This document shows positions 1,270-25,144 of a stretch of 35,812 nucleotides of DNA, piece by piece. The position numbers were made by a program, and so were the translations under genes. The notes below the pieces were generated by a model that ran no database searches, was not told the origin of the DNA, and saw only the letters and a program-made list of their open reading frames with translations. Source of the stretch: a virus (lineage: Duplodnaviria; Heunggongvirae; Uroviricota; Caudoviricetes). Numbering within the stretch: the first letter of the stretch is position 1; every line of letters starts with the position of its first letter. The stretch is taken from IMG/VR virus record IMGVR_UViG_2693429554_000020, positions 1-35,812 of that record; one strand, given 5' to 3'.

Positions 1270-2318
1270 GAAATCGTCCCCAGTACCGCCAGTTCATTTT
1301 TTGCAATGGAGATATTGTCTGCCGGTGCAAGCAACTGATGGCTGTATTCCCCGTTCGCACCGGAAATCGCCTCACTGATACGCGATACCTTCAGTTCTCC
1401 CTGCGGATAACCATCACGCAGCAGGAACGAACGCAACTCCGCGGTAATGGCAGCCCGTATTTCCGGTGTGTCCGGCGTCACACGGATATGAAAATCCACC
1501 GTATGTGCCACCGGCCTGAACACATACAAATCAGAGCCTGCCACCGGGGCCAGTGGCCCGATATGTTGTCTTGCCGCCGTTTCCGTTGATTCTTCCGGAA
1601 TGGGATTAATCAGGTCACTGCCGGCAATCATCACACCGACAGTCCCCGTTCCCATCCAGTGTCGGTATGTCCATGCGCGGGTAATGCCGGGCACTTCTTT
1701 AGCCCAGACAACATAGTCCCCGTCAGCCCCGCCCTGAGGCGTCCAGTAATATCGCTCAATGACGCGGGCGCGCCACGTTTCCAGATCTTCAGTATCGAAT
1801 CCGCCAGTCAGGGTATCTGCCACACCGGAAGACGGCAGACCATTCACCGGCGTGACCAGGATTAATGACATACCGTCGTCAGCGTTACCGACCGCACCTG
1901 CACTTGAGCAGGCGATCGGCACGCGCAGGACACCACCGGAGCTGGTTGCATCGGCAGTTGCCGTGTACTGAACCAGGTCATCGCGTTGAATAACACTCCC
2001 GGCGGTCACCTTCAGCCCATCGCTGACACCTTCCCAGCGCATATACCCGCTGGCAGCAGTGGCCCCCTTGCGCGGACACCGTTTCATCGCAGCATGTCGC
2101 GCCAGCCAGGACTCATCGCACAGGTCAGGCAGCATGTTCATTGCCAGATAATCGATGTAACCGTAAACCGTATGCAGCGCCGCCGCATACACCTTTGCCC
2201 GCACGTCTTCATCCATGCGCCGGAGCGTGTCGCTGACGTCCAGCCTGGCGAATAAATCGTTACGGAGCATACTGATATTTTCTGCCAGCGTCGGGCGCTG
2301 AAATTCACTGTCCGCCAT
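1260..2318 (-). CDS. Baseplate J-like protein
   Basis: 352-aa ORF, overlapping start/stop with neighbours, in the canonical baseplate position of Mu/P2-type contractile tails. Confidence 0.6.
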
Positions 2319-2733
2319 GCGTTATCGCACTCCACAGATCATCAAAAGAAATCATTACCGGTCCGTCACGACGCCAGAGAGTGATACTGTTACCCAGTTC
2401 ATTAATCCCGGTGCGGCGGATATCCAGATCAATACGGGACACCACGCCGTCATCAGTCATCCATTGCAGGCATTCACGGATATATCCCCTTACCGTCTGC
2501 ACCAGCTGATTGGTCAGTTTGCTGCGCTGAAGCAGCCACAGCCGGGAGCCGTAACGGTCATTCTGTACCGCAGGCCAGGTATCCCCCCACCATCCCATCG
2601 GGACGTCGGCGTTGTCATCAGGCTCCGCCCGCCGCCAGGTAAACAGGGAAATCACCACGGCGCGGGTCAGCGGATCCAGCGGTGCGCTGGCGCAGGTGCG
2701 TTTACCGTTCACCGTCAGCCACAGTTCCATCAT
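2305..2733 (-). CDS. Baseplate protein (Mu gp46-like)
   Basis: 142-aa ORF in operon with baseplate J and V-like genes; synteny-based. Confidence 0.5.
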   Translation of the reverse strand: MMELWLTVNGKRTCASAPLDPLTRAVVISLFTWRRAEPDDNADVPMGWWGDTWPAVQNDRYGSRLWLLQRSKLTNQLVQTVRGYIRECLQWMTDDGVVSRIDLDIRRTGINELGNSITLWRRDGPVMISFDDLWSAITHGGQ

Positions 2734-3224
2734 GCCTCCATCGCTTTATCAGGTTTGTCGGTGTTACTGCCCTGACCGTTCTCTCTGTGACGATGCCCGT
2801 TATAGGCAAGCCGCATCGCTGACATGGTGGTGCCGCCGGAGTCGCACAGGTCTTTCACCTGTCCGGTCACTTCCAGGTCCATTTCAAAACGTGCTTCAGG
2901 TGAATTGCGAAACGTGATCGTTTTACCTGCACCGTCCACCACGATCCCCTCCCGGGTCAGCGTCACGGACTGCCCCTGATCGTCATAGACAGCCACCTCA
3001 CCCGTCTGCAGCCCTTTCAGGCGGTAGCGCCGGTCCGACACCGTAACAACCACCGCATGAGAACGGTCGCCATCCGGAAACAACACCACCGCTTCCGCAC
3101 CGCTGTTTGCCCTTGCGGTAAAACCGTAGGGTTCAAGATGTTCAACCCCGGCTTTGGGTTCACCGGCAATCAGGGACACATCCACGGTCTGACATTTCGT
3201 GGCGGCACTGATGCTTTTCACCAC
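2730..3224 (-). CDS. Baseplate assembly protein V-like (spike)
   Basis: 164-aa ORF between hub-like and gp46-like genes; synteny-based. Confidence 0.5.
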   Translation of the reverse strand: MVKSISAATKCQTVDVSLIAGEPKAGVEHLEPYGFTARANSGAEAVVLFPDGDRSHAVVVTVSDRRYRLKGLQTGEVAVYDDQGQSVTLTREGIVVDGAGKTITFRNSPEARFEMDLEVTGQVKDLCDSGGTTMSAMRLAYNGHRHRENGQGSNTDKPDKAMEA

Positions 3225-3277
3225 TGCCCGCCCAATCAGGCCGAGAAGTTGTCGCTGTATGGTTTCAATCGCCCTAA

Positions 3278-4357
3278 TCAGAACGGGTCCTCCTGTACTC
3301 TGGCTTTTTTCTTTTTCCGCGCGCCGGGATCTTCGGGTTCAGGCAGATAAGCATCAGGCGGGCCGACACGGATTTCCGTCAGGGTTCCGTTCTGGTCCTG
3401 AGTAAACGTGACTTCCGAAACAAGCAGTTCGGTATTGTCGAAACCACAGACCGGATCGAAGACAATCACCCGCTGGTTGGGCTGCCACAGCGTACCGTTA
3501 CCCTGTCGCCAGCCCTGCACCACATAGGTGGTTTCATCCGTCCGCGCCGCCCGTTGTCGGGCTTCAAAGTCAGCACGCGCAATACAGCCTGCCCCCGTGG
3601 CCTGCCCTGTCTGCCTGATATACATCGGACGGTAACGGGCAATAAATGCGTCCTCTGTGCGGGCCCGCAGCGCGGTGGTGGTGGCCTCACCGAAATCATC
3701 GTCGTTTCCGGCACGCTGCCCCGCCACCTGGTAAACAGAAAACCGCTCCCGGATACTCTTCTCCGTATCACAGGAAAGGATGTTTTCCCCAAGTACCAGC
3801 GCGGTATGTGCCCGCGTTGAGCCAATACCGCCAATCACCAGCCTGCCGTGCGGGTCGTCGTAAGCCAGCGCCTGCTGCTGACCGAGTATTTTGTTGATTA
3901 CCTCAATCACCGTTTCACCGTGATCAGGCTGAACATCAGGAATAACACCCGACGGCGCACCGCTGTTCACCACCTCAATGCCAAAAGGCGCAGCAAGCGC
4001 CTGCACAATCTGCACCAGCGAGCGTCCGTTAAACTGTGTCGGTTCGGCTGCACAGTCAATCAGGTCAGCCGTCAGACTACGTCCGGCAATACCGGTGCTG
4101 ACCGAACGGGCATCGTAACGAACGGGAGTCGCCTCCACCCAGCCGGTGATCACCAGCTCATCACCAATCAGCACTTCCACTTTTGAACCGTTTTTAATGC
4201 GCGGCTGAAGCGTGGTGATACCCTCATCTCCCGGCCACTGGCGAGTGATCTCCACACTGAAATCCCGCGCCAGCCGTTCAATACCGGCACCGATGCGCAC
4301 CGATGTCCAGCCATTCCACTCCCGGCCATTTACCCGTAGCGTGACATTGTCGTTCAT
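3278..4357 (-). CDS. Baseplate hub / tail protein (Mu gpP / P2 gpD-like)
   Basis: 359-aa ORF immediately downstream of the N-like gene; size and position fit the late-control-D/hub family. Confidence 0.55.
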   Translation of the reverse strand: MNDNVTLRVNGREWNGWTSVRIGAGIERLARDFSVEITRQWPGDEGITTLQPRIKNGSKVEVLIGDELVITGWVEATPVRYDARSVSTGIAGRSLTADLIDCAAEPTQFNGRSLVQIVQALAAPFGIEVVNSGAPSGVIPDVQPDHGETVIEVINKILGQQQALAYDDPHGRLVIGGIGSTRAHTALVLGENILSCDTEKSIRERFSVYQVAGQRAGNDDDFGEATTTALRARTEDAFIARYRPMYIRQTGQATGAGCIARADFEARQRAARTDETTYVVQGWRQGNGTLWQPNQRVIVFDPVCGFDNTELLVSEVTFTQDQNGTLTEIRVGPPDAYLPEPEDPGARKKKKARVQEDPF

Positions 4358-17666: not shown

Positions 17667-18017
17667 TTACTTCAGCCGTTCACGGGCCGTCTTCGCCTTA
17701 TGACACGGCCAGCACAGACTCTGCAGGTTACTGTCGGCATCGGTGCCGCCATGCGCTTTGGGAATGATGTGGTCAACGGTTTTCGCCTCACGCACCACAC
17801 CGGCACGCAGACATAACTGACACAGGCCTTTGTCACGCTTCAGCACACGTTCACGGATGGTATCCCACTTCGAACCGTAACCGCGCTGATGACGTGACAG
17901 GCCTGGTTTGTATTGCTTCCAGCCTTCGCTTTTGTGGCTTTCGCAATAGCCTGACGGGTCAGTAGTGGTATTGCGGCAACCGCGAACGCGGCAGGCTTTT
18001 GGTGTACGTGGTGGCAT
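17667..18017 (-). CDS. HNH endonuclease (terminase-associated)
   Basis: CQLC...DHIIPKAHGG...N...CWPCH motif. Start placed at ATG 18017 (MPPRTPK...) with AAGGAAA SD; the track ORF extends to 18104. Confidence 0.75.
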   Translation of the reverse strand: MPPRTPKACRVRGCRNTTTDPSGYCESHKSEGWKQYKPGLSRHQRGYGSKWDTIRERVLKRDKGLCQLCLRAGVVREAKTVDHIIPKAHGGTDADSNLQSLCWPCHKAKTARERLK

Positions 18018-18096
18018 TAATTGTTTCCTTAAGCCATTACGATGCGTCTGAAAATGAGTTAATCTGAAAATTCCTTCACTATGCGAGAGCATGACA

Positions 18097-18396
18097 ATGG
18101 TCATAGGACAAGAAGATCAGAAATGCTGCCCGGCTTGCAATTCAGATGCGACCTGGCAGAACCGTGATACCGCTTGGTTAATTAGATGCCCGATGTGTGA
18201 AACATTTCTCATCAGGAATTCCACCATTGAAATTTTGCGAAGTGACGTTGTGTATCGGACATTAGCTGGTGACCTTCTCAAACAAGAAGGTGGGTGTAAC
18301 TACATGCTTACAAGAGGAAGGCTTGCGAACTTCGCGAAAACCCAGCTCCCAAAATCAAAGTTTCAGGAATACTTCCCTGGTGACAACTACGAATAA
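18097..18396 (+). CDS. Small zinc-ribbon protein (hypothetical passenger gene)
   Basis: ORF 18091..18396 on the strand opposite the late genes; two Cys pairs (CCPAC...CPMC). Start at second ATG preferred on SD spacing. Confidence 0.35.
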   Translation: MVIGQEDQKCCPACNSDATWQNRDTAWLIRCPMCETFLIRNSTIEILRSDVVYRTLAGDLLKQEGGCNYMLTRGRLANFAKTQLPKSKFQEYFPGDNYE

Positions 18397-18436
18397 GCCA
18401 TTACAAAGCCCACCCGCAGATGAGCTTTGTAATGGC
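18397..18436. terminator. Perfect 13-bp inverted repeat hairpin between convergent genes
   Basis: GCCATTACAAAGC (18397-18409) and GCTTTGTAATGGC (18424-18436) with a 14-nt loop, between the zinc-ribbon ORF and the Rz1 3' end. Confidence 0.4.
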
Positions 18437-18693
18437 TACTGTGAGTTGCGTGACGTTTCTATCTTCCTGATACTGGCCTTGTCGATGTTGCACTGGCCCA
18501 GCGCCGAAAGCAGGCTCACATTCAGATCCAGACTGGCCCCATAGGTCAGCGGGTCGGGAATGACTGGCTGGGGCGTTTCAGTGGTCAGGCTTGTTGGCAG
18601 CGGTACCGCCGGAACCGGCACGTAAACTGTTCGCGTACTTCCGCAACCGGTCAGCAGCGGCAGCAGGCACATGACGTGAAGCACAATCATCAT
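18436..18693 (-). CDS. o-spanin (Rz1-like outer-membrane lipoprotein)
   Basis: Alternate-frame ORF overlapping the 3' end of Rz; start at internal Met gives lipobox LLTGC followed by a Pro-rich segment. Confidence 0.55.
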   Translation of the reverse strand: MMIVLHVMCLLPLLTGCGSTRTVYVPVPAVPLPTSLTTETPQPVIPDPLTYGASLDLNVSLLSALGQCNIDKASIRKIETSRNSQ

Positions 18694-18970
18694 CCGCAAC
18701 AGCCACTTTGATATCTTCCTGGGTTCTCTGTGACTCCAGTGCGATCTGCTGTTTTGCATGCTGGTTAGCCTCTATAACTGTATTGATGATTTGCAGTGAT
18801 TGCAGAACGTTACGGGTAATGGCAGTTGCTGATTCAGCATTTCGTACAGCCTCATCAGCACGCTCCTTTTCGTGCTGATATTTGCTGTAGTAATGTCCAG
18901 CAGACCAGATGAAGGAACCAATGACGCTAACAACGAAGGCAACAATAACCAGCTTATATCTCAGCTTCAT
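18578..18970 (-). CDS. i-spanin (Rz-like)
   Basis: 130-aa ORF with N-terminal TM helix, immediately after the endolysin gene, overlapping the Rz1-like ORF. Confidence 0.65.
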   Translation of the reverse strand: MKLRYKLVIVAFVVSVIGSFIWSAGHYYSKYQHEKERADEAVRNAESATAITRNVLQSLQIINTVIEANQHAKQQIALESQRTQEDIKVAVADDDCASRHVPAAAADRLRKYANSLRAGSGGTAANKPDH

Positions 18971-19430
18971 TTACTACCCCACCAGCTTTTTTAAATCGGG
19001 CAATCAGGTCACCGATTTTATGTTCATACTGACCGTAACCTGCACCAGGTAACGACGCCCAGATATTGCTGCAACGGTCGATTGCCTGACGAATACTGCC
19101 GCGGTCAATCATCGGTAAAGCACCACGCTCTTTAATCTGCTGCAGAGCTACAGCGTCCTGGCTTTCTGGAGAAAAATCTTTCAGGCCAAGCTGTTTACGG
19201 TAAGCATCCCACCAGCGTGAAAGAAGCTGGTAACGTCCGGCAGCTGTTGATTTGAGTTTGGGGTTTAGCGTGACAAGTTTGCGAGGGTGATCGGAGTAAT
19301 CAGTGAACAGTTCGCCACCAACAATAACATCATAACCGTGGTTACGTGTCGGTTGTCGCCCGTTATCCGTTCCTTCTGACCATGCCACCATATCCAGGAA
19401 AGCTTTACGCTGGGAATTTAGTGCCTGCAT
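18954..19430 (-). CDS. R: Endolysin, lambda R-type lytic transglycosylase
   Basis: 158-aa protein closely matching lambda R as I recall it (QRKAFLDM.AWSEGTDNGRQ.TRNHGYDVIVGGELFTDYSDHPRKLVTLNPKLKST...). Confidence 0.85.
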   Translation of the reverse strand: MQALNSQRKAFLDMVAWSEGTDNGRQPTRNHGYDVIVGGELFTDYSDHPRKLVTLNPKLKSTAAGRYQLLSRWWDAYRKQLGLKDFSPESQDAVALQQIKERGALPMIDRGSIRQAIDRCSNIWASLPGAGYGQYEHKIGDLIARFKKAGGVVNEAEI

Positions 19431-19433
19431 AAA

Positions 19434-19769
19434 TTACTCCTTCGAGCTACCAAATTTGTTACCGATTACTCGCATTGCAGCCCCACGAATAGCATCGACA
19501 CCGATCAGCCCCACGCCACCACCAATGGCAACAGAAAGCGATTTAGGCCATCCGACATATTCAAGAGCGGATGCAAAGGTCAGCGTCAGAGCGCCACATA
19601 GCAAAATCTCGAGCGTTTTTCGCTTCCAGCCACCACCACCGCCAAAATAGGCGATGCGCAAACCAGCCATAACGATCGACATAATCACTGCACCCAGCGG
19701 TGTGTCTCCACGCCACCAGCTCTGAAACAACTCCAGCCAGTCCGGCCAGGTATTTGGGTTATGAGGCAT
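19434..19769 (-). CDS. Holin (divergent lambda S-like)
   Basis: 111-aa ORF with about three hydrophobic segments directly upstream of R; loose pattern similarity to lambda S. Confidence 0.55.
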   Translation of the reverse strand: MPHNPNTWPDWLELFQSWWRGDTPLGAVIMSIVMAGLRIAYFGGGGGWKRKTLEILLCGALTLTFASALEYVGWPKSLSVAIGGGVGLIGVDAIRGAAMRVIGNKFGSSKE

Positions 19770-19815
19770 TTAGTCATCTCTCACCTCGCGATATTTGCGG
19801 GTGCTGTGTTGGAAA

Positions 19816-19838
19816 TAAAAAGGCCACGCAACGTGGCC
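19816..19838 (-). terminator. Intrinsic terminator downstream of methyltransferase gene
   Basis: On the minus strand GGCCACG-ttg-CGTGGCC (perfect 7-bp stem) followed by TTTTTATTT, 8 bp after the MTase stop and before the holin. Confidence 0.55.
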
Positions 19839-19845
19839 ACCAGAA

Positions 19846-20898
19846 TTATTTCCCCACCAGTTCACTTACCTCTTTCACCGTCTGATTAAACCGCTCTGAC
19901 TCAAGTTCAACACCTAACGCCCGACGCCCCAGCGCCATTGCTGCTTTTATTGTGGAACCGGATCCCATAAAGAAATCAGCAACCAGATCACCAGGTCGAC
20001 TACTGGCATTGATTATTTGCCGGAGCATATCCGCCGGTTTCTCGCACGGATGTTTACCCGGGTAGAACTGAACGGGCTTATGCGTCCAGACATCGGTATA
20101 AGGCACGGAGACTGATACGGAGAAATAGCGCCGGAGAGATTTAAACTCATCCAGCAATTCAGAATATTTGCGATTCAGTGAATCATAAGATGCCACCAGC
20201 TGGTGGTGTGGTTGTTCCAGTTGTTGTTCCTGAAACTTCTCTGCCGCTATACGGGAAAACAGTGCCTGTAACTTCCGATAGTCAGCCTCATTCGGCAACT
20301 GCCACTGACTGGCACCAAACCAGTGGGAAACCATATTTTTCTTACCTGTGGCTTCGGCAATTTGTTTTGCCGTTATACCCAGTTCGGCACGAGCATCCCT
20401 GAAATACGATATCAGCGGTGCCATTATGTGCTGTTTGAGTTCCCTTTCTTTTGCCGCATAGCCGTCACTTTTGCCGCGATATGGCCCCTGGTAATGTTCA
20501 GCAAACAGAACGCGCTCTGTGGCAGGAAAATATGCGCGCAGACTTTCTTTATTACACCCATTCCAACGTCCGGACGGCTTCGCCCAGATGATATGGTTAA
20601 GCACGTTGAAACGTTCACGCATCATGATCTCAATATCAGATGCCAGGCGATGCCCACAGAACAGGTAAAGGCTTCCGGCAGGTTTTAACACCCGCCAGAA
20701 CTGGGCCAGACAGTGGTCCAGCCACTTAAGGTAATCTTCGTCCCCTTTCCACTGATTGTCCCAACCGTTAGGTTTCACCTTGAAGTAAGGCGGATCGGTA
20801 ACAATCAGGTCAATGGAATCATCAGGCAGGGACTGAATAAAATGCAGGCAATCAGCGTTGATTAAATCAACACTGTTTATTTTTACAGTATTTTTCAT
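19846..20898 (-). CDS. DNA methyltransferase, N6-adenine/N4-cytosine type (DPPY motif), orphan
   Basis: 350-aa ORF with IVTDPPY catalytic motif and C-terminal SAM-binding-like FFMGSGST; no adjacent restriction endonuclease gene. Confidence 0.8.
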   Translation of the reverse strand: MKNTVKINSVDLINADCLHFIQSLPDDSIDLIVTDPPYFKVKPNGWDNQWKGDEDYLKWLDHCLAQFWRVLKPAGSLYLFCGHRLASDIEIMMRERFNVLNHIIWAKPSGRWNGCNKESLRAYFPATERVLFAEHYQGPYRGKSDGYAAKERELKQHIMAPLISYFRDARAELGITAKQIAEATGKKNMVSHWFGASQWQLPNEADYRKLQALFSRIAAEKFQEQQLEQPHHQLVASYDSLNRKYSELLDEFKSLRRYFSVSVSVPYTDVWTHKPVQFYPGKHPCEKPADMLRQIINASSRPGDLVADFFMGSGSTIKAAMALGRRALGVELESERFNQTVKEVSELVGK

Positions 20899-21048
20899 GG
20901 ATCAGTAAGCGTAACTCTGGTAGGCTCACTCTGCTTTTGCGCTAAAGCAGTGGGCCGTGGTTCGCTTGTGACCAGTAAGCATGAGCGAATGGCTGGCAGG
21001 TGCTACCAACACCCACCAGCCGCCCATTTTCACAGCAGGAAACCGCCA

Positions 21049-21251
21049 TTACTGGCAGCGTCTGAATTTATTCCCGTACCCGCCGTTATCCTTCGCCAGA
21101 CCCGCCAGAACTAACTGAGTCAGTATTAACTGGCACCTGGCTTCGCTTACTCCGGTAGTTCTCGTCATCATGCGTGGCGTTACCCACTTGTCAGCAGGTA
21201 AGAAATGAAGGACTGCGGCGGCGGTTTCTGTCATATCTTGCTGTTTTAGCA
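21049..21251 (-). CDS. Small hypothetical protein (late-region)
   Basis: Track ORF 21049..21360; start at ATG 21251 favoured because the upstream part overlaps a terminator-like hairpin and an SD-like GAAGGG precedes it. Confidence 0.3.
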
Positions 21252-21370
21252 TGTCTTTTCCCTTCTGGTTAACATGACATACCAATAACTCTTGTCTAAA
21301 AAGCCAGCAAGATAAAAAGCCAGTATTCACGACCACCAGCGTGTTTACTGTACTGCACAAGGTTTACAGG

Positions 21371-21398
21371 TACAAAAAAACCGCTCAGCGGCGGGTTT
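21371..21398 (-). terminator. Terminator-like hairpin with T7 run (minus strand)
   Basis: Minus strand AAACCCGCCGCTGAGCGG followed by TTTTTTT; lies between the AT-rich cassette and the late genes. Confidence 0.35.
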
Positions 21399-21516
21399 AA
21401 GTTGTGTGGCGAAGTAACCACTCTTAACACGATATAATACTTTTTGCGTACGCGTTAGGATTTTTATAAACTATGCGTCCCCATTCTCGCTAACTTTAGT
21501 CGGTCCTGGAATACAC

Positions 21517-22443
21517 ATGAAAGTTAGAAGCATAGGATTTACAATAAATAACAATAACAAAAATATTAATACCGTTGACGTAATGAATGCTTTTATCAAC
21601 GCATCAAACAGAGAACACAGTCGCACAGACTATACTCGTAAAATTCTCATTTCGGATGTGAATGATTTCTATTATGGATTAGTTGTCACATTCAGAAACC
21701 AAAAAAAGAACTGTAAGTCGCAATTTGTTGATGGTAAATTCCAGCTTAAAATTGAAGATCTTCAAGGAAGTGACAAACTTGCTAATTTCAACTTTTTCTT
21801 AATTAAAAAATCTAATCTTTCTGGTCTCTATATGTATCACCACGGGTCATGCAGTCTGAACACTCTCTTTTCTCATTTAGAAACAATAAGTAATGAATTT
21901 ATCAGAAATCAAAATAAAGAAGAAATAAAAAAACTTGGTGATAAACCAAAACAAAAAGAAGTAACTGCAATAAATAAAAAATACAAAGAAAGACTGACTT
22001 TCAGCCTTATGACAAATAAAAACAACATTCAGAGTGTTTTATGTCAATTCAAAGAGATTAAAAGCACAAGCTTTAAATTTAATTATATAGATTTTAAAGG
22101 TGGACCAATGACTGCGCTTGAACAATTTGTTAACACCACCACAATAGATATGAATTTTAATTCTAGCGACAGAACAAAAGTGCAACAACTATCTCAGAAT
22201 CTTTCAAATATTTATAATTCTATGAGTGGAGTTGCTAAAGCACAGGTTATTGCAGTAAACCATGCAGGAATAGAAAAAACCATTGATTTTATGAACTGCC
22301 CTGTTTTTTTTGAAACATACGATTTCGATATAATTGCCGATAAAGTCAATGGATTGACAAACGATAATTATACAACAAACCCTGTTTTTGATATGATAAA
22401 AGAAGAAATGCTGAACGGGACGAATAAAAATGCCTTTATATGA
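21517..22443 (+). CDS. Hypothetical protein, AT-rich cassette gene 1 (no family recognised)
   Basis: 308-aa ORF in roughly 30% GC DNA with Asn-rich N-terminus (TINNNNKNINT), opposite strand to the flanking phage genes, 14-nt overlap with the next ORF. Confidence 0.6.
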   Translation: MKVRSIGFTINNNNKNINTVDVMNAFINASNREHSRTDYTRKILISDVNDFYYGLVVTFRNQKKNCKSQFVDGKFQLKIEDLQGSDKLANFNFFLIKKSNLSGLYMYHHGSCSLNTLFSHLETISNEFIRNQNKEEIKKLGDKPKQKEVTAINKKYKERLTFSLMTNKNNIQSVLCQFKEIKSTSFKFNYIDFKGGPMTALEQFVNTTTIDMNFNSSDRTKVQQLSQNLSNIYNSMSGVAKAQVIAVNHAGIEKTIDFMNCPVFFETYDFDIIADKVNGLTNDNYTTNPVFDMIKEEMLNGTNKNAFI

Positions 22444-22978
22444 ATGGCTAATAAATAAAAGGTTGAGGTATCAGTACCTTACACTGCTTGCATTCTCGAT
22501 CCTGGCATTGCTTGCACTTTACCTATTGTACAGAAACACACCTAAAGTAAGTGTTAACTTTTTTGATTTTTATCATAAAAACTTACGAGGCTATCTCTTC
22601 TCCGGTTTTATTTCCGTGGGCTCATTTTTATTGAGCCTGCATACCTTTGTCATAATAAATTTACGCGATAAGGTTTTTGCAACTCAGGAATATAAGGAAA
22701 TTTATAGCATTGCCACTGGTATACCTATTGACAAAATCAATGATAGTGCACTTTATAAACCTTTAGACAATTTATCCTCATTTATTAATACATCAATATT
22801 ATGTTCTATCACAACAGCAATTGCACAATTCACTATTGGACTTTCAACTAATTTATATGCATGCTTATTTTGCGTATGGCTTGCAATACTAACGGTATTT
22901 CTTTTATTACATTGCCTCATCATAATCAGACAAAATATTAAAATTTTATTAAAGCAACAGAGAAAAAAAGGGGGGTAA
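22430..22978 (+). CDS. Hypothetical membrane protein, AT-rich cassette gene 2 (about four TM helices)
   Basis: 182-aa ORF with four hydrophobic segments, translationally coupled to gene 1 (ATG inside ...ATGCCTTTATATGA...), basic C-terminus. Confidence 0.6.
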   Translation: MPLYEWLINKRLRYQYLTLLAFSILALLALYLLYRNTPKVSVNFFDFYHKNLRGYLFSGFISVGSFLLSLHTFVIINLRDKVFATQEYKEIYSIATGIPIDKINDSALYKPLDNLSSFINTSILCSITTAIAQFTIGLSTNLYACLFCVWLAILTVFLLLHCLIIIRQNIKILLKQQRKKGG

Positions 22979-22985
22979 TTCCCCC
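22970..22985. terminator. Bidirectional terminator hairpin between convergent cassette gene 2 and Q
   Basis: GGGGGG-TAATT-CCCCC flanked by A8 on the plus side (T-run on minus strand), occupying the 12 bp between the two stop codons. Confidence 0.6.
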
Positions 22986-22990
22986 TAATA

Positions 22991-23332
22991 TTACAACATT
23001 GAAAGCACACCATCCAGAAAACCAAGAGCTGTTTGCAACTCTTTTCTTATTGTCCCATCAGAACACTTCTGCTTCTTTGCAATAGTTCTTAGTGAGATGC
23101 CGATAACAAAATGAGCAATAACCAACTCATACTCTTCGGGCTTATATTTCCGCAATCGCGCAACACAGCTGTCAATCATGATTCCTTCATCATCATCGCA
23201 TTGTTGGCGTGTTTTCTTTCCATGAGGTAGTAAACCTTTAAACCCTGCAGCAACAGGCTGCCAGTCCACACCACTGTTATCTGCTGCAGCCCATGCACCC
23301 CAGCGGTCCAATACTTCATACATATCACGCAT
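22991..23332 (-). CDS. Late-gene antiterminator Q (QuuD-like)
   Basis: MRDMYEVLDRWGAWAA...GFKGLL...CDDDE...CSDG matches the Q-family pattern as recalled; start at ATG 23332 with GGAGAAAG SD (track ORF begins at 23347). Confidence 0.7.
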   Translation of the reverse strand: MRDMYEVLDRWGAWAAADNSGVDWQPVAAGFKGLLPHGKKTRQQCDDDEGIMIDSCVARLRKYKPEEYELVIAHFVIGISLRTIAKKQKCSDGTIRKELQTALGFLDGVLSML

Positions 23333-23349
23333 CAACTTTCTCCACAAAA

Positions 23350-24345
23350 TCAGGCCAGCACGCCAATTGCCAGTGCACGATCGATAAAACGAAATATCAG
23401 CTCCAGCTGGGAGCCATACTTCTCTTCAAATGCCACGGTATCCGCATGCAGCTCGTCGTGATGCTTTCTGCACAAAGGCAACACAAAGAGGTCATGCGCT
23501 TTTGTAGCCATTCCACCCTGACCGTGACCTATCAGGTGGTGGGGATCATCAGCAGGTTTTCCACAACATGCGCACGGCTGCGTCTTAACCCATCGCGTGT
23601 ACTTTTCATTAACCCAGCGGCGACGTTTGGGGCGTAACATAAAAGACTCCGGCGACTCCGGATCCACTTTCAGCGCCAGCACCTTTTTCGCCTTATCCTG
23701 GATGATGCTGGTGGCAGGAACCGAAGGCACAAGGTCACTTTCCCGGGTAACAGACGGCACAACAGGCTTCGGTAATCTCAGTGCCTTACGGGCTGCACTT
23801 TCCGGTAAGGCATCCGCCAGATCATTACGAATCAGCCACCAGCACAGTTCCGGCATTGTCACAACATGACTGTCATCAAAACCGAGATCCCGACGCACAA
23901 CAGACAACACCCAGCGGGCACTGTTATCCGTTGCCATTGATTCCAGCCGTTCCGTGAACTGATCGCGCAGCTGGTTATCGCAGTGCCAGCACAAACGGAT
24001 TGCGCCCGGAGCGTGTCGCATTGTTGTCATGTTCTCGCTGTGCCAGTCGGAATGAGGCCACTGGCAGCCTTTTTCACGAAGTAACCAGCTTTCAAGACAT
24101 TCCACGCCACCAGCACGACGGATCACTGCCTCATTGCGGAACACGGCCCGAACGGCAGGATCATCCGCCAGCGGTTGTGATGCCGCCGGAACGGCACCAC
24201 TGGCGAAAGATGAATAACGTTCCGGCTCAGGCTCCAGCAAGACACGCCCCTGCATAAACAAGGGCATCAGCTCTGAACCGGGTCTGAACAATACGATCCC
24301 CATACGCGGGGCAATTTCAGGGGTCAGTAGTGCTCTCACGGTCAC
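23350..24345 (-). CDS. Conserved lambdoid nin-region protein (DUF968/YdfU-like) with C-terminal Cys/His zinc motif
   Basis: 331-aa ORF between KilA-N and Q; C-terminus CACCGKPADDPHHLIGHG...CRKHHDELH. Family name from memory; start codon uncertain. Confidence 0.5.
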   Translation of the reverse strand: MTVRALLTPEIAPRMGIVLFRPGSELMPLFMQGRVLLEPEPERYSSFASGAVPAASQPLADDPAVRAVFRNEAVIRRAGGVECLESWLLREKGCQWPHSDWHSENMTTMRHAPGAIRLCWHCDNQLRDQFTERLESMATDNSARWVLSVVRRDLGFDDSHVVTMPELCWWLIRNDLADALPESAARKALRLPKPVVPSVTRESDLVPSVPATSIIQDKAKKVLALKVDPESPESFMLRPKRRRWVNEKYTRWVKTQPCACCGKPADDPHHLIGHGQGGMATKAHDLFVLPLCRKHHDELHADTVAFEEKYGSQLELIFRFIDRALAIGVLA

Positions 24346-24346
24346 C

Positions 24347-25144
24347 TCAATGAACGGTATCGAGCAGCTTTAACAGCTCAGGGAATCGGGATTCGAAGAA
24401 ATGCGGCTGCGTCTCGCGCGGATTTGCGGGACTGGTGATGTTCTTGCCGAACATGCAGCCTTTCGCCGTCAGCGACCAGAATTTTTTGATGTTGTTAATC
24501 GCGGTACGGCTGTATCGTTCGCGCTGCTCGACGATCCCCAGTTTCACCATCTGGTGATATGCCTGATTAGCCGTCAGGCGGATACCATACTGCTTCAGCA
24601 GTGCACTCAGTGACAGCGTGGGGCGGCTTGAGCCATCAGGCGCGTCAGCAGGAGCATCAATGGCATAGCGCGGTGCCAGATTCGGTAAGCCAACAGCCTC
24701 CTGGAGTTTCTGACAGGCACCAAGCACTGAAGAGTTAGACAGGTTTAATTCCCGGCGCATAAAGTCCAGCAGAATCACACCAGCCTGCATCTTGTCAGCA
24801 GCCTGTCCGGATAATTTTTCCGGTACGCTGGTTACCATGTCGAAAGTACGGATCACCTTCAGATGGAATGACGGGCTGATCCACATTGCATAGGCATACA
24901 CCAGTTCTTTGCAGACATACGTCCCCTGGTTATTTCCGCCACGAATAACGTTAACTGACTCTATATTGACCGAGTTGCAAATCTGCAACTCGCTTATTAA
25001 ACGTTCAGTTTGCTCATTGCGGAGCCAGAATGCAGGCTTATGCTTATCCAGAGAACCAGCAGCCCTGTGCAGATCGTTCAGGCTGTAACGCCCATAAGCA
25101 TCACGACGAACTTCAATACCATCAATGACCATCAGATTATTCAT
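24347..25144 (-). CDS. KilA-N domain protein (antirepressor-like)
   Basis: N-terminal MNNLMVIDGIEVRRDAYGRYSLNDLHRAAG... typical of KilA-N; strong SD AGAGGAGA upstream. Confidence 0.7.
   Translation of the reverse strand: MNNLMVIDGIEVRRDAYGRYSLNDLHRAAGSLDKHKPAFWLRNEQTERLISELQICNSVNIESVNVIRGGNNQGTYVCKELVYAYAMWISPSFHLKVIRTFDMVTSVPEKLSGQAADKMQAGVILLDFMRRELNLSNSSVLGACQKLQEAVGLPNLAPRYAIDAPADAPDGSSRPTLSLSALLKQYGIRLTANQAYHQMVKLGIVEQRERYSRTAINNIKKFWSLTAKGCMFGKNITSPANPRETQPHFFESRFPELLKLLDTVH

Follow-up and report, generated by a model that had tools for sequence, protein, structure and literature searches.

We analysed a stretch of viral DNA of 35,812 nucleotides (nt; IMG/VR record IMGVR_UViG_2693429554_000020, here called the window) and concentrated on a gene for a DNA methyltransferase in its lambdoid late region, together with the RNA leader that precedes this gene and the terminator that follows it. 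Along the minus strand the order is Q, an insert carried on the opposite strand, a putative pR', the terminator tR', orf47, the leader, the methyltransferase gene, the second terminator, and the genes for holin, endolysin, and Rz (Table 1).

The methyltransferase and its relatives

The open reading frame (ORF) of the methyltransferase matches Pfam family PF01555 (N6_N4_Mtase) across residues 29–341 at 146.6 bits (cut-off 26.7) and ends in a TAA stop codon at 19848..19846. Its motifs follow the beta-class order, with IVTDPPYF near the N terminus (residues 32–39, DPPY being 35–38) and FFMGSGST near the C terminus (residues 309–316, FMGSG being 310–314). This is the reverse of the order in Dam-type (alpha-class, GATC) enzymes, to which the protein therefore does not belong. 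A separate dam gene is present in the early regions of SfV and SfII, and none was found among the early-region ORFs of the window that we scanned.

Aligned over its full length by BLASTP, the window protein is identical to M.EcoGII at 283 of 349 positions (81%; 91% positives, 2 gaps), a value that may be slightly too low because the reference sequence (Table S1 of PMC11551740) was machine-read from a PDF supplement. M.EcoGII is a beta-class N6-adenine methyltransferase of 349 amino acids (aa) from a prophage of E. coli O104:H4 (C227-11), and it acts without sequence specificity (PMC5778455). The window protein is also 88% identical to Anc291 and 69% identical to SUPREM, two reconstructed ancestors, the first of them that of M.EcoGII, which are active N6-methyladenine (m6A) methyltransferases and largely sequence-independent (PMC11551740). 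Because these three assayed, non-specific enzymes bracket the window protein, we place it in the M.EcoGI/M.EcoGII family, and on sequence grounds we regard the gene, with high confidence, as an orthologue of these beta-class N6-adenine methyltransferases. Within the target-recognition region (residues 160–237), which has been modelled for the family as a four-helix-bundle helix-turn-helix with a charged linker (PMC11551740), 60 of 78 residues (77%) are identical to M.EcoGII and 67 of 78 (86%) to Anc291; the 66 residues out of 349 at which the window protein departs from M.EcoGII include 18 within this region. Members of the family have no recognition motif (PMC5778455), and non-specific methylation is what the assayed relatives would predict for the window protein. 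Methyltransferases 99–100% identical to it are encoded by SfV, phage cdtI, and vB_EcoM-720R4, and across the set of SfV, Ayreon, the cdtI phage, mEp460, and PhiR40_1 protein identity is 98–99%. Among solved structures, the nearest are partial matches of 24–89 bits (9c3u/8urk, M.RsrI), and M.EcoGII is not among them.

A preliminary description of this locus, made from the sequence alone, had proposed an orphan DPPY methyltransferase in a late region that might protect phage DNA from host restriction or alter host gene expression. The orphan status stands: besides the PF01555 match and the motifs, we found no endonuclease gene of a Type II restriction-modification system adjoining the methyltransferase gene, whose immediate neighbours encode a 67-aa winged-helix protein and a holin, and a PADLOC search returned methyltransferase models as its sole matches, with no restriction partner. 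Neither of the two HNH-type genes in the window is adjacent; one (17667..18104) lies beside the terminase genes, and the other (23350..24345) is a DUF968 gene also found in SfII, a phage that lacks the methyltransferase.

An effect on host expression would fit a sequence-specific orphan enzyme of the YhdJ/M.EcoKII or CcrM kind, marking a defined motif in the lysogen chromosome, and this model is implicit in the preliminary description. Such enzymes share the Pfam family, the window protein gives partial NCBIfam matches to the YhdJ-type and CcrM models, and the weak tR' of the window would favour activity in the lysogen. Those NCBIfam scores, however, lie far below cut-off (109.8 against 292 for YhdJ-type, 67 against 830 for CcrM), and full-length identity of the window protein to enzymes with demonstrated non-specific activity is 81–88%. 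M.EcoGII is silent in its native lysogen, its constitutive expression is harmful, and lysogens do not express the M.EcoGI/M.EcoGII family (PMC5778455); given this family behaviour and its own position behind tR', the window gene is expected to be silent in the lysogen as well. We consider a sequence-specific, lysogen-active enzyme very unlikely, and an influence on host expression is unsupported for a gene that sits behind tR' in a Q-dependent operon. Protection of phage DNA from restriction, the other proposed role, is the likely one. Since the family has no motif and is silent in lysogens, the suggested comparison of lysogen and cured methylomes would mislead: no signal would be expected, and an absent motif would be a false negative, not a refutation of function. 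The annotation should read M.EcoGII-type non-specific adenine methyltransferase, with its signal expected in virion DNA after induction and not in lysogen methylomes.

Table 1. Positions of the features discussed (window numbering unless another phage is named)
Feature	Position	Strand	Remarks
Antiterminator Q gene	22991..23347	minus	PF06530, 153.7 bits; phrog_79
Gap between Q and pR'	window, 22991 down to 21398; SfII, 1823..3437; PhiR40_1, 2723..3169		SfII and PhiR40_1 positions refer to the retrieved loci
Putative pR' and Q-utilisation site	~21398..21462	minus	block of ~65 nt shared by phages with the same Q type
tR'-type terminator	21373..21397	minus	stem 21392..21380, U7; 5' edge of cassette
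orf47-like gene	21049..21252	minus	67-aa stand-alone winged-helix protein; phrog_331; first late-operon gene
Hairpin over orf47 stop codon	21042..21059	minus	GCUGCCA-GUAA-UGGCGGU
Structured RNA leader, 142 nt	20896..21037	minus	ends with methyltransferase AUG, 20898..20896
Leader P1	21026-21022/20955-20951	minus	UGGGC/GCCCA; closes junction
Leader P2	21021-21010/21002-20991	minus	junction hairpin
Leader P3	20989-20984/20966-20961	minus	junction hairpin
Leader P4	20950-20944/20937-20931	minus	hairpin after junction
Alternative long-range helix	20973-20963/20911-20900	minus	pairs bases just 5' of AUG
Methyltransferase gene, 350 aa	19846..20898	minus	ATG start; PF01555 match
Intrinsic terminator	19813..19838	minus	stem 19838..19822, U-run 19821..19813
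Holin S gene	19434..19769	minus	lambda S family, PF05106; first gene past terminator
Endolysin gene	18954..19430	minus	after holin
Rz gene	18578..18970	minus	after endolysin
Rz1-like embedded ORF	18436..18759	minus	listed with lysis genes
Com-like ORFs	phiARM81ld (L175), 1362..1577; ST2-1pr (L177), 1358..1468		..LRCxxCxxKL..EIKCxRCK..; between leader and methyltransferase

Conservation and alternative folds of the leader RNA

The preliminary description overlooked a conserved, structured leader just before the methyltransferase gene. In the E. coli, Klebsiella, Hafnia, and Morganella phages examined, orf47 and the methyltransferase gene are separated by about 150 nt (138–153 nt), a gap in which conservation exceeds expectation and for which the predicted fold has a free energy of −67.4 kcal/mol (z −2.95). 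The element itself measures 134–140 nt, from UGUGAAAAUGGGCG to the AUG. A small peptide was considered, as ORFs of 33–35 aa run through the gap in two frames, and rejected: single-base indels between lineages (Stx2a_14040, phiP27) break or shift the frames, with the nucleotides conserved. These indels, together with G-U pairs that exist on the sense strand only, indicate an RNA element and neither a peptide nor a DNA cruciform.

Retrieval of viral contigs by protein similarity gave near-identical E. coli prophages only, and diversity was taken from 80 species-representative genomes with a methyltransferase homologue (62–93% protein identity). Across these, UGGGC stands 126–132 nt upstream of the start codon in nearly all Enterobacterales genera. 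Photorhabdus and Xenorhabdus (loci L149–L174) have a shortened leader, about 70 nt before the methyltransferase, in which the 5' hairpin domain alone is kept (GGUGAAAUGGACGGCUGG...CCAGCCAUUCGCC) and which the covariance model scarcely detects (13 bits). N15 and PY54 keep the same leader layout with entirely different hairpin sequences.

Junction and loop bases of the leader are almost invariant, and its stems covary. In a MAFFT alignment of 60 sequences that was not fitted to the leader structure, 19 of 35 pairs showed changes on both sides, compared with 10.3 ± 1.5 in shuffles, and none of 500 shuffles matched the alignment by any measure. A covariance-model alignment of 73 sequences, which was fitted to the model and hence leans towards it, had two-sided changes at 23 of 30 pairs (12.4 ± 1.5 in shuffles) and a covariation score of 0.201, as against 0.082 in shuffles and at most 0.084 in slid controls. 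RNAalifold applied to this second alignment recovered P1 and P2 independently.

The leader covariance model, which scored 154.5 bits on the window leader, found exactly one match per methyltransferase locus in 587 kb, each ending at the start codon, and no match in SfII, the phage without the methyltransferase. With filters off, it also matched phages outside its training set (VHML, 55 bits; Vibrio ST2-1pr, 41 bits; Aeromonas phiARM81ld, 33 bits), and the range of the leader takes in E. coli lambdoid prophages including Stx2 phages, N15, PY54, VHML, and Aeromonas phages. The AUG that ends the motif in ST2-1pr and phiARM81ld starts a zinc-finger ORF resembling Mu Com and preceding the methyltransferase homologue, which by analogy suggests a second, com/mom-style layer of translational control in these Aeromonas and Vibrio phages. 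When viral contigs were searched with a three-block DNA pattern, 78 of the 81 matches had a methyltransferase AUG 22–23 nt downstream, the other three being one deletion remnant and two chance matches in high-GC DNA. We also observed, in viral contig L196 (2146..2252), a deletion derivative that lacks the catalytic N-terminal half of the methyltransferase, so that the leader runs directly into the C-terminal part (EKPAEMLQQIISASSRPGD). Rfam 15 gave no match with E ≤ 1 for 18300..23500, only chance matches (E 3–5) for the leader alone, and nothing for the leaders of nine diverse loci. Literature searches with leader sequence strings found no description of the leader, and those with keywords for methyltransferase-associated RNA motifs returned general surveys only.

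A second set of helices is mutually exclusive with the P1–P4 model, and both sets are conserved. In one of these helices, of long range, the P3 segment GGUCA.AAGCG pairs with CGCUU..UGAUC just before the AUG; pairing amounts to 86.5%, and double-change cells number 28, compared with 9.8 in shuffles. Pairing reaches 99.7% in an alternative closing helix (AAUGG/CYCAU) and 90.9% in an extension of P4. The closing helix emerged from RNAalifold on a 10-sequence MAFFT seed, and pairability counts placed it in the alternative fold; the suspicion that it was an alignment artefact was dropped, since it is almost always pairable. The predicted energies of the two folds in the window are −55.4 and −56.5 kcal/mol, and the minimum free energy is −56.9 kcal/mol. 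By these predictions the leader would be bistable, one fold comprising a three-way junction and a hairpin and the other, nearly as stable, pairing the bases before the AUG. No Shine-Dalgarno sequence is found at normal spacing from this AUG.

Conserved junction bases, covarying stems, and two exclusive folds, one of them predicted to bury the start site, are the marks of an RNA switch, and we read the leader, from its conservation and modelled folding, as a probable translational gate on a toxic enzyme. To the fuller proposal, that it represents an undescribed class of cis-regulatory RNA, a bistable switch dedicated to M.EcoGII-family genes and gating their translation, we give about an even chance. 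Candidate triggers are the orf47 protein, a Com-like protein, the methyltransferase itself, and co-transcriptional folding behind Q-modified polymerase. That the leader was found before genes of a single family favours a protein or a kinetic trigger over a general metabolite.

It is possible, if on balance doubtful, that the leader is no translational switch and serves instead as a binding site for the orf47 or Com-like protein, a riboswitch of the S-adenosylmethionine/S-adenosylhomocysteine (SAM/SAH) type, a processing or stability element, or a small trans-acting RNA derived from the late transcript. Riboswitches and protein-binding leaders do resemble it in their near-invariant junction and loop bases with covarying stems, a small winged-helix gene travels with it in many phages, and there are the Com-like ORFs started by the motif AUG. 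The restriction to one gene family that emerged from the pattern search nevertheless makes a general metabolite sensor less likely; the leader always finishes on a start codon at a fixed spacing, as expected of control in cis; and no orf47 gene separates the terminator from the motif in N15 and PY54.

The leader could also be bound up with the activity of the enzyme, if RNA were its main substrate in vivo, late in infection, and the leader RNA a target or an autoregulatory binding site. A conserved structured RNA always precedes the gene, M.EcoGII acts in vitro as a methyltransferase on adenosine (rA) of RNA and of DNA:RNA hybrids (PMC5778455), and relatives have been engineered into efficient RNA methyltransferases (PMC11551740). 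M.EcoGII, however, works on DNA at about 90 times the rate that it reaches on RNA (Table S3, PMC11551740), and at position 179, where E has been linked to higher RNA activity (PMC11551740), both it and the window protein have Q. We consider a primary role on RNA unlikely.

Terminators, cassette, and predicted control of the late operon

The preliminary description had placed a strong hairpin and T-run 8 bp after the methyltransferase gene and suggested regulated read-through into lysis. Hairpin and U-run are indeed present before the holin gene, at a distance from the stop codon of 7 nt and not 8. The hairpin (GGCCACG-UUG-CGUGGCC) has a 7-base-pair stem with six G-C pairs and a 3-nt loop, UUG, and runs straight into UUUUUAUUU, the last base of which is 19813. 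Its folding energy is −12.5 kcal/mol (z = −2.0), and it ranked first in a scan of 18000..24500 (6.5 kb) that returned 18 sites, compared with 6.3 ± 2.9 in shuffles, and it is one-directional, the T-run being absent on the plus strand. Such a G+C-rich hairpin, leading directly into a U-run and lying past a stop codon on the transcribed strand, is predicted to cause intrinsic termination. A rho-independent terminator is already annotated at the same position in SfV and Ayreon; the hairpin of Ayreon and PhiR40_1 is a variant with an identical U-run, and that found at the equivalent position in N15 is a different one. Stx2 phages have tRNA genes and stx2 after the homologue and lack the U-run terminator, which ties the terminator to the layout in which a methyltransferase gene precedes a holin gene.

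The terminator is not a device peculiar to the window; it is part of a widespread cassette. Similarity to other phages breaks off at two points, 19782, which lies between the terminator and the first base of the holin gene, and 21397, where the tR' hairpin has its 5' edge, so that tR', orf47, the methyltransferase gene, and the terminator form one recombining unit. Of 5426 complete E. coli genomes, 1484 contain the cassette (19782..21397), 1120 of them at ≥80% coverage. Holins of three or more types adjoin it in different phages, and it has 97–99% nucleotide identity to its counterparts in mEp460_4F5, vB_EcoM-720R4, SfV, the cdtI phage, Ayreon, and PhiR40_1, the figure for SfV being 98%. The SfV counterpart is orf47-orf48 (U82619); the deposited record labels orf48 'unknown' and marks two 'putative rho-independent terminators', whose positions match those in the window exactly.

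As the strongest hairpin of the region, directly before the holin gene and with an analogue in N15, the terminator might be a dedicated attenuator that times lysis independently of Q by means of another read-through factor. Q-modified polymerase passes downstream terminators, however, as is established for lambda (PMC7547250), the terminator moves with its cassette from one holin type to another, and no antiterminator-like alternative structure overlaps it; we see only a slim chance for a dedicated attenuator. What remains of the suggested read-through into lysis is a real terminator that has to be passed, for which ordinary Q antitermination suffices with no special device. The terminator probably serves as a second barrier against the entry of polymerase that lacks Q modification into the lysis genes, and this barrier may be important in the window, where tR' is weak.

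Directly upstream of tR', a block of about 65 nt is common to the window, SfII, and PhiR40_1 and absent from SfV and Ayreon. In SfV a lambda-like pR' (TTGCAT-17-TAAGAT with an AACGAT pause element) replaces it, about 60 nt before the cassette. Since the SfV cassette directly follows this promoter, its first terminator is tR'. We infer that the 65-nt block would hold pR' and the Q-utilisation site for the Q type of the window. The counterpart of the window tR' is annotated as a terminator in SfV and Ayreon. At −7 kcal/mol (z −0.6), the window tR' is weaker than that of SfV because one stem G has been lost. A pR' immediately after Q was rejected, as similarity among phages of the same Q type stops before the Q stop codon, whereas the tR'-adjacent block is shared. 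An independent methyltransferase promoter was rejected as well, promoter-like sites numbering 9 against 10.9 in shuffles and the sole minus-strand site between tR' and the gene being weak. In known systems, transcription from pR' is constitutive and in lysogens stops at tR', and read-through after induction depends on Q (PMC7547250).

We consider it very probable that the window carries an M.EcoGII-type enzyme, encoded by the second gene in the Q-dependent late operon of a lambdoid prophage, silent in the lysogen, made late, and methylating phage DNA broadly. In the lysogen, pR' transcripts would end at tR', and any leak-through would then meet the orf47 hairpin and the strong terminator after the methyltransferase gene; the leader fold that buries the start site would probably block translation too. 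The toxic enzyme would thereby be kept off and the lysis genes insulated. Upon induction, Q would render RNA polymerase terminator-resistant, the methyltransferase would be made late, alongside packaging and lysis proteins, and the broadly methylated progeny DNA would resist many of the restriction systems that m6A blocks. Several observations weigh against this account. The window protein differs from M.EcoGII at 19% of residues, although a change of specificity seems unlikely. The pR' hexamers in the 65-nt block match the consensus poorly, and the promoter scan did not call them. The weak tR' makes some methyltransferase transcription in lysogens conceivable, and the terminator after the methyltransferase gene belongs to the methyltransferase-then-holin arrangement and not to the whole family.

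The orf47 protein is named a TrmB-family or a DprA-like winged helix, depending on the source. Its AlphaFold2 model (predicted local distance difference test score, pLDDT, 88) has a helix-helix-helix-strand-strand winged-helix fold. Among its full-length matches in the PDB, domains of the Z-alpha type (Z-DNA/Z-RNA binding) rank best, with weak E-values, and TrmBL2 is another of its generic winged-helix matches, likewise weak. Homologues adjoin the methyltransferase gene in SfV, Stx2 phages, and Hafnia and Morganella phages, and N15 gp51 is a weak match. The window and SfV proteins are about 50–51% identical in the middle and C-terminus, with 97–98% identity in the flanking DNA, which points to mosaic exchange within this 200-bp gene. 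The counterpart in Stx2 phages of the hairpin over the orf47 stop codon has compensatory changes and a full U-run.

The insert between Q and tR' spans 1.6 kb of low-GC DNA on the opposite strand, and a candidate RexA/RexB-like pair lies in it. The cargo between the Q stop codon and pR' differs by phage (two ORFs in the window, two unrelated ones of 1023 and 585 bp in SfII, and one of 447 bp in PhiR40_1), and in phages of this Q type the gap appears to be a hotspot at which accessory genes expressed by the lysogen are inserted. A strong hairpin with U7 lies 5 nt past the Q stop codon (22969..22986, minus strand; AGGGGGAAUUACCCCCCU UUUUUUU, −11.4 kcal/mol) and overlaps the end of a convergent 182-aa ORF; it probably ends the early (pR-Q) transcript, unlike the situation in lambda, where pR' directly follows Q. 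Past the lysis genes, a 101-aa ORF on the plus strand (18091..18396) has a weak, sub-cut-off Pfam match (E = 0.005) to a zinc-ribbon/Lar-like (restriction alleviation) family.

Significance and comparison with known systems

The enzyme family, the cassette, and the annotated terminators were already known, and in these respects the finding is ordinary in kind; the leader is the sole element here with real potential for novelty, and it is a more likely point of specific control than the terminator. Roughly one complete E. coli genome in four carries the cassette, which many Stx2 phages have directly upstream of stx2. If the leader is truly a translational switch, it would explain how a prophage keeps a dangerous enzyme silent yet available, and it would add a new class of structured RNA in a very well-studied organism. 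M.EcoGII is widely used as a reagent, for chromatin footprinting, MadID, and RNA labelling, and the leader could then provide a compact natural off-switch for expressing enzymes of this type.

The window enzyme resembles M.EcoGII and M.EcoGI in its beta-class order (DPPY, target-recognition domain, FxGxG), its length of 349–350 aa, and its lambdoid prophage setting. The closest relatives of M.EcoGII among the loci that we fetched (93–95% identical; L006 and L103) have the same layout of orf47, leader, and methyltransferase gene as the window, in which, however, the gene is followed by the terminator and holin instead of tRNA genes and stx2. Promiscuous adenine methyltransferases of the alpha class (M.HaeV; Drozdz et al., as cited in PMC5778455) are, by that account, likewise phage-associated and of low specificity, and they differ from the window enzyme in having FxGxG first and an unrelated target-recognition domain. 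The pR'-tR' region of lambda, which yields the 6S RNA, and the StxS RNA (PMC7547250) share with the window a constitutive late promoter that is terminated nearby in lysogens and read through with Q. The terminated window transcript would be only ~50–60 nt, and the leader lies downstream of tR' and hence is not the terminated small RNA.

SfV has another Q, a lambda-like pR', and a divergent orf47, and it carries the same terminators at the same positions. Phage N15 (AF064539) encodes gp52, 56% identical to the window protein, in an annotated series of −35/−10 promoter, terminator, methyltransferase, terminator, and holin, with the leader motif (60 bits) between the first terminator and the gene. 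It differs in being a linear-plasmid prophage, in having its weak orf47 homologue gp51 before the promoter, and in its unrelated hairpin sequences. In the com-mom operon of phage Mu, a toxic late DNA-modification gene is controlled at the level of translation, with its start site buried in RNA structure. Mom lies outside this methyltransferase family, the window has no com, and its leader has no detectable similarity to that of mom. The two systems nevertheless have in common a harmful late DNA modification and, for the window by prediction, a buried start site, and the Aeromonas and Vibrio relatives of the window system carry a Com-like ORF as well.

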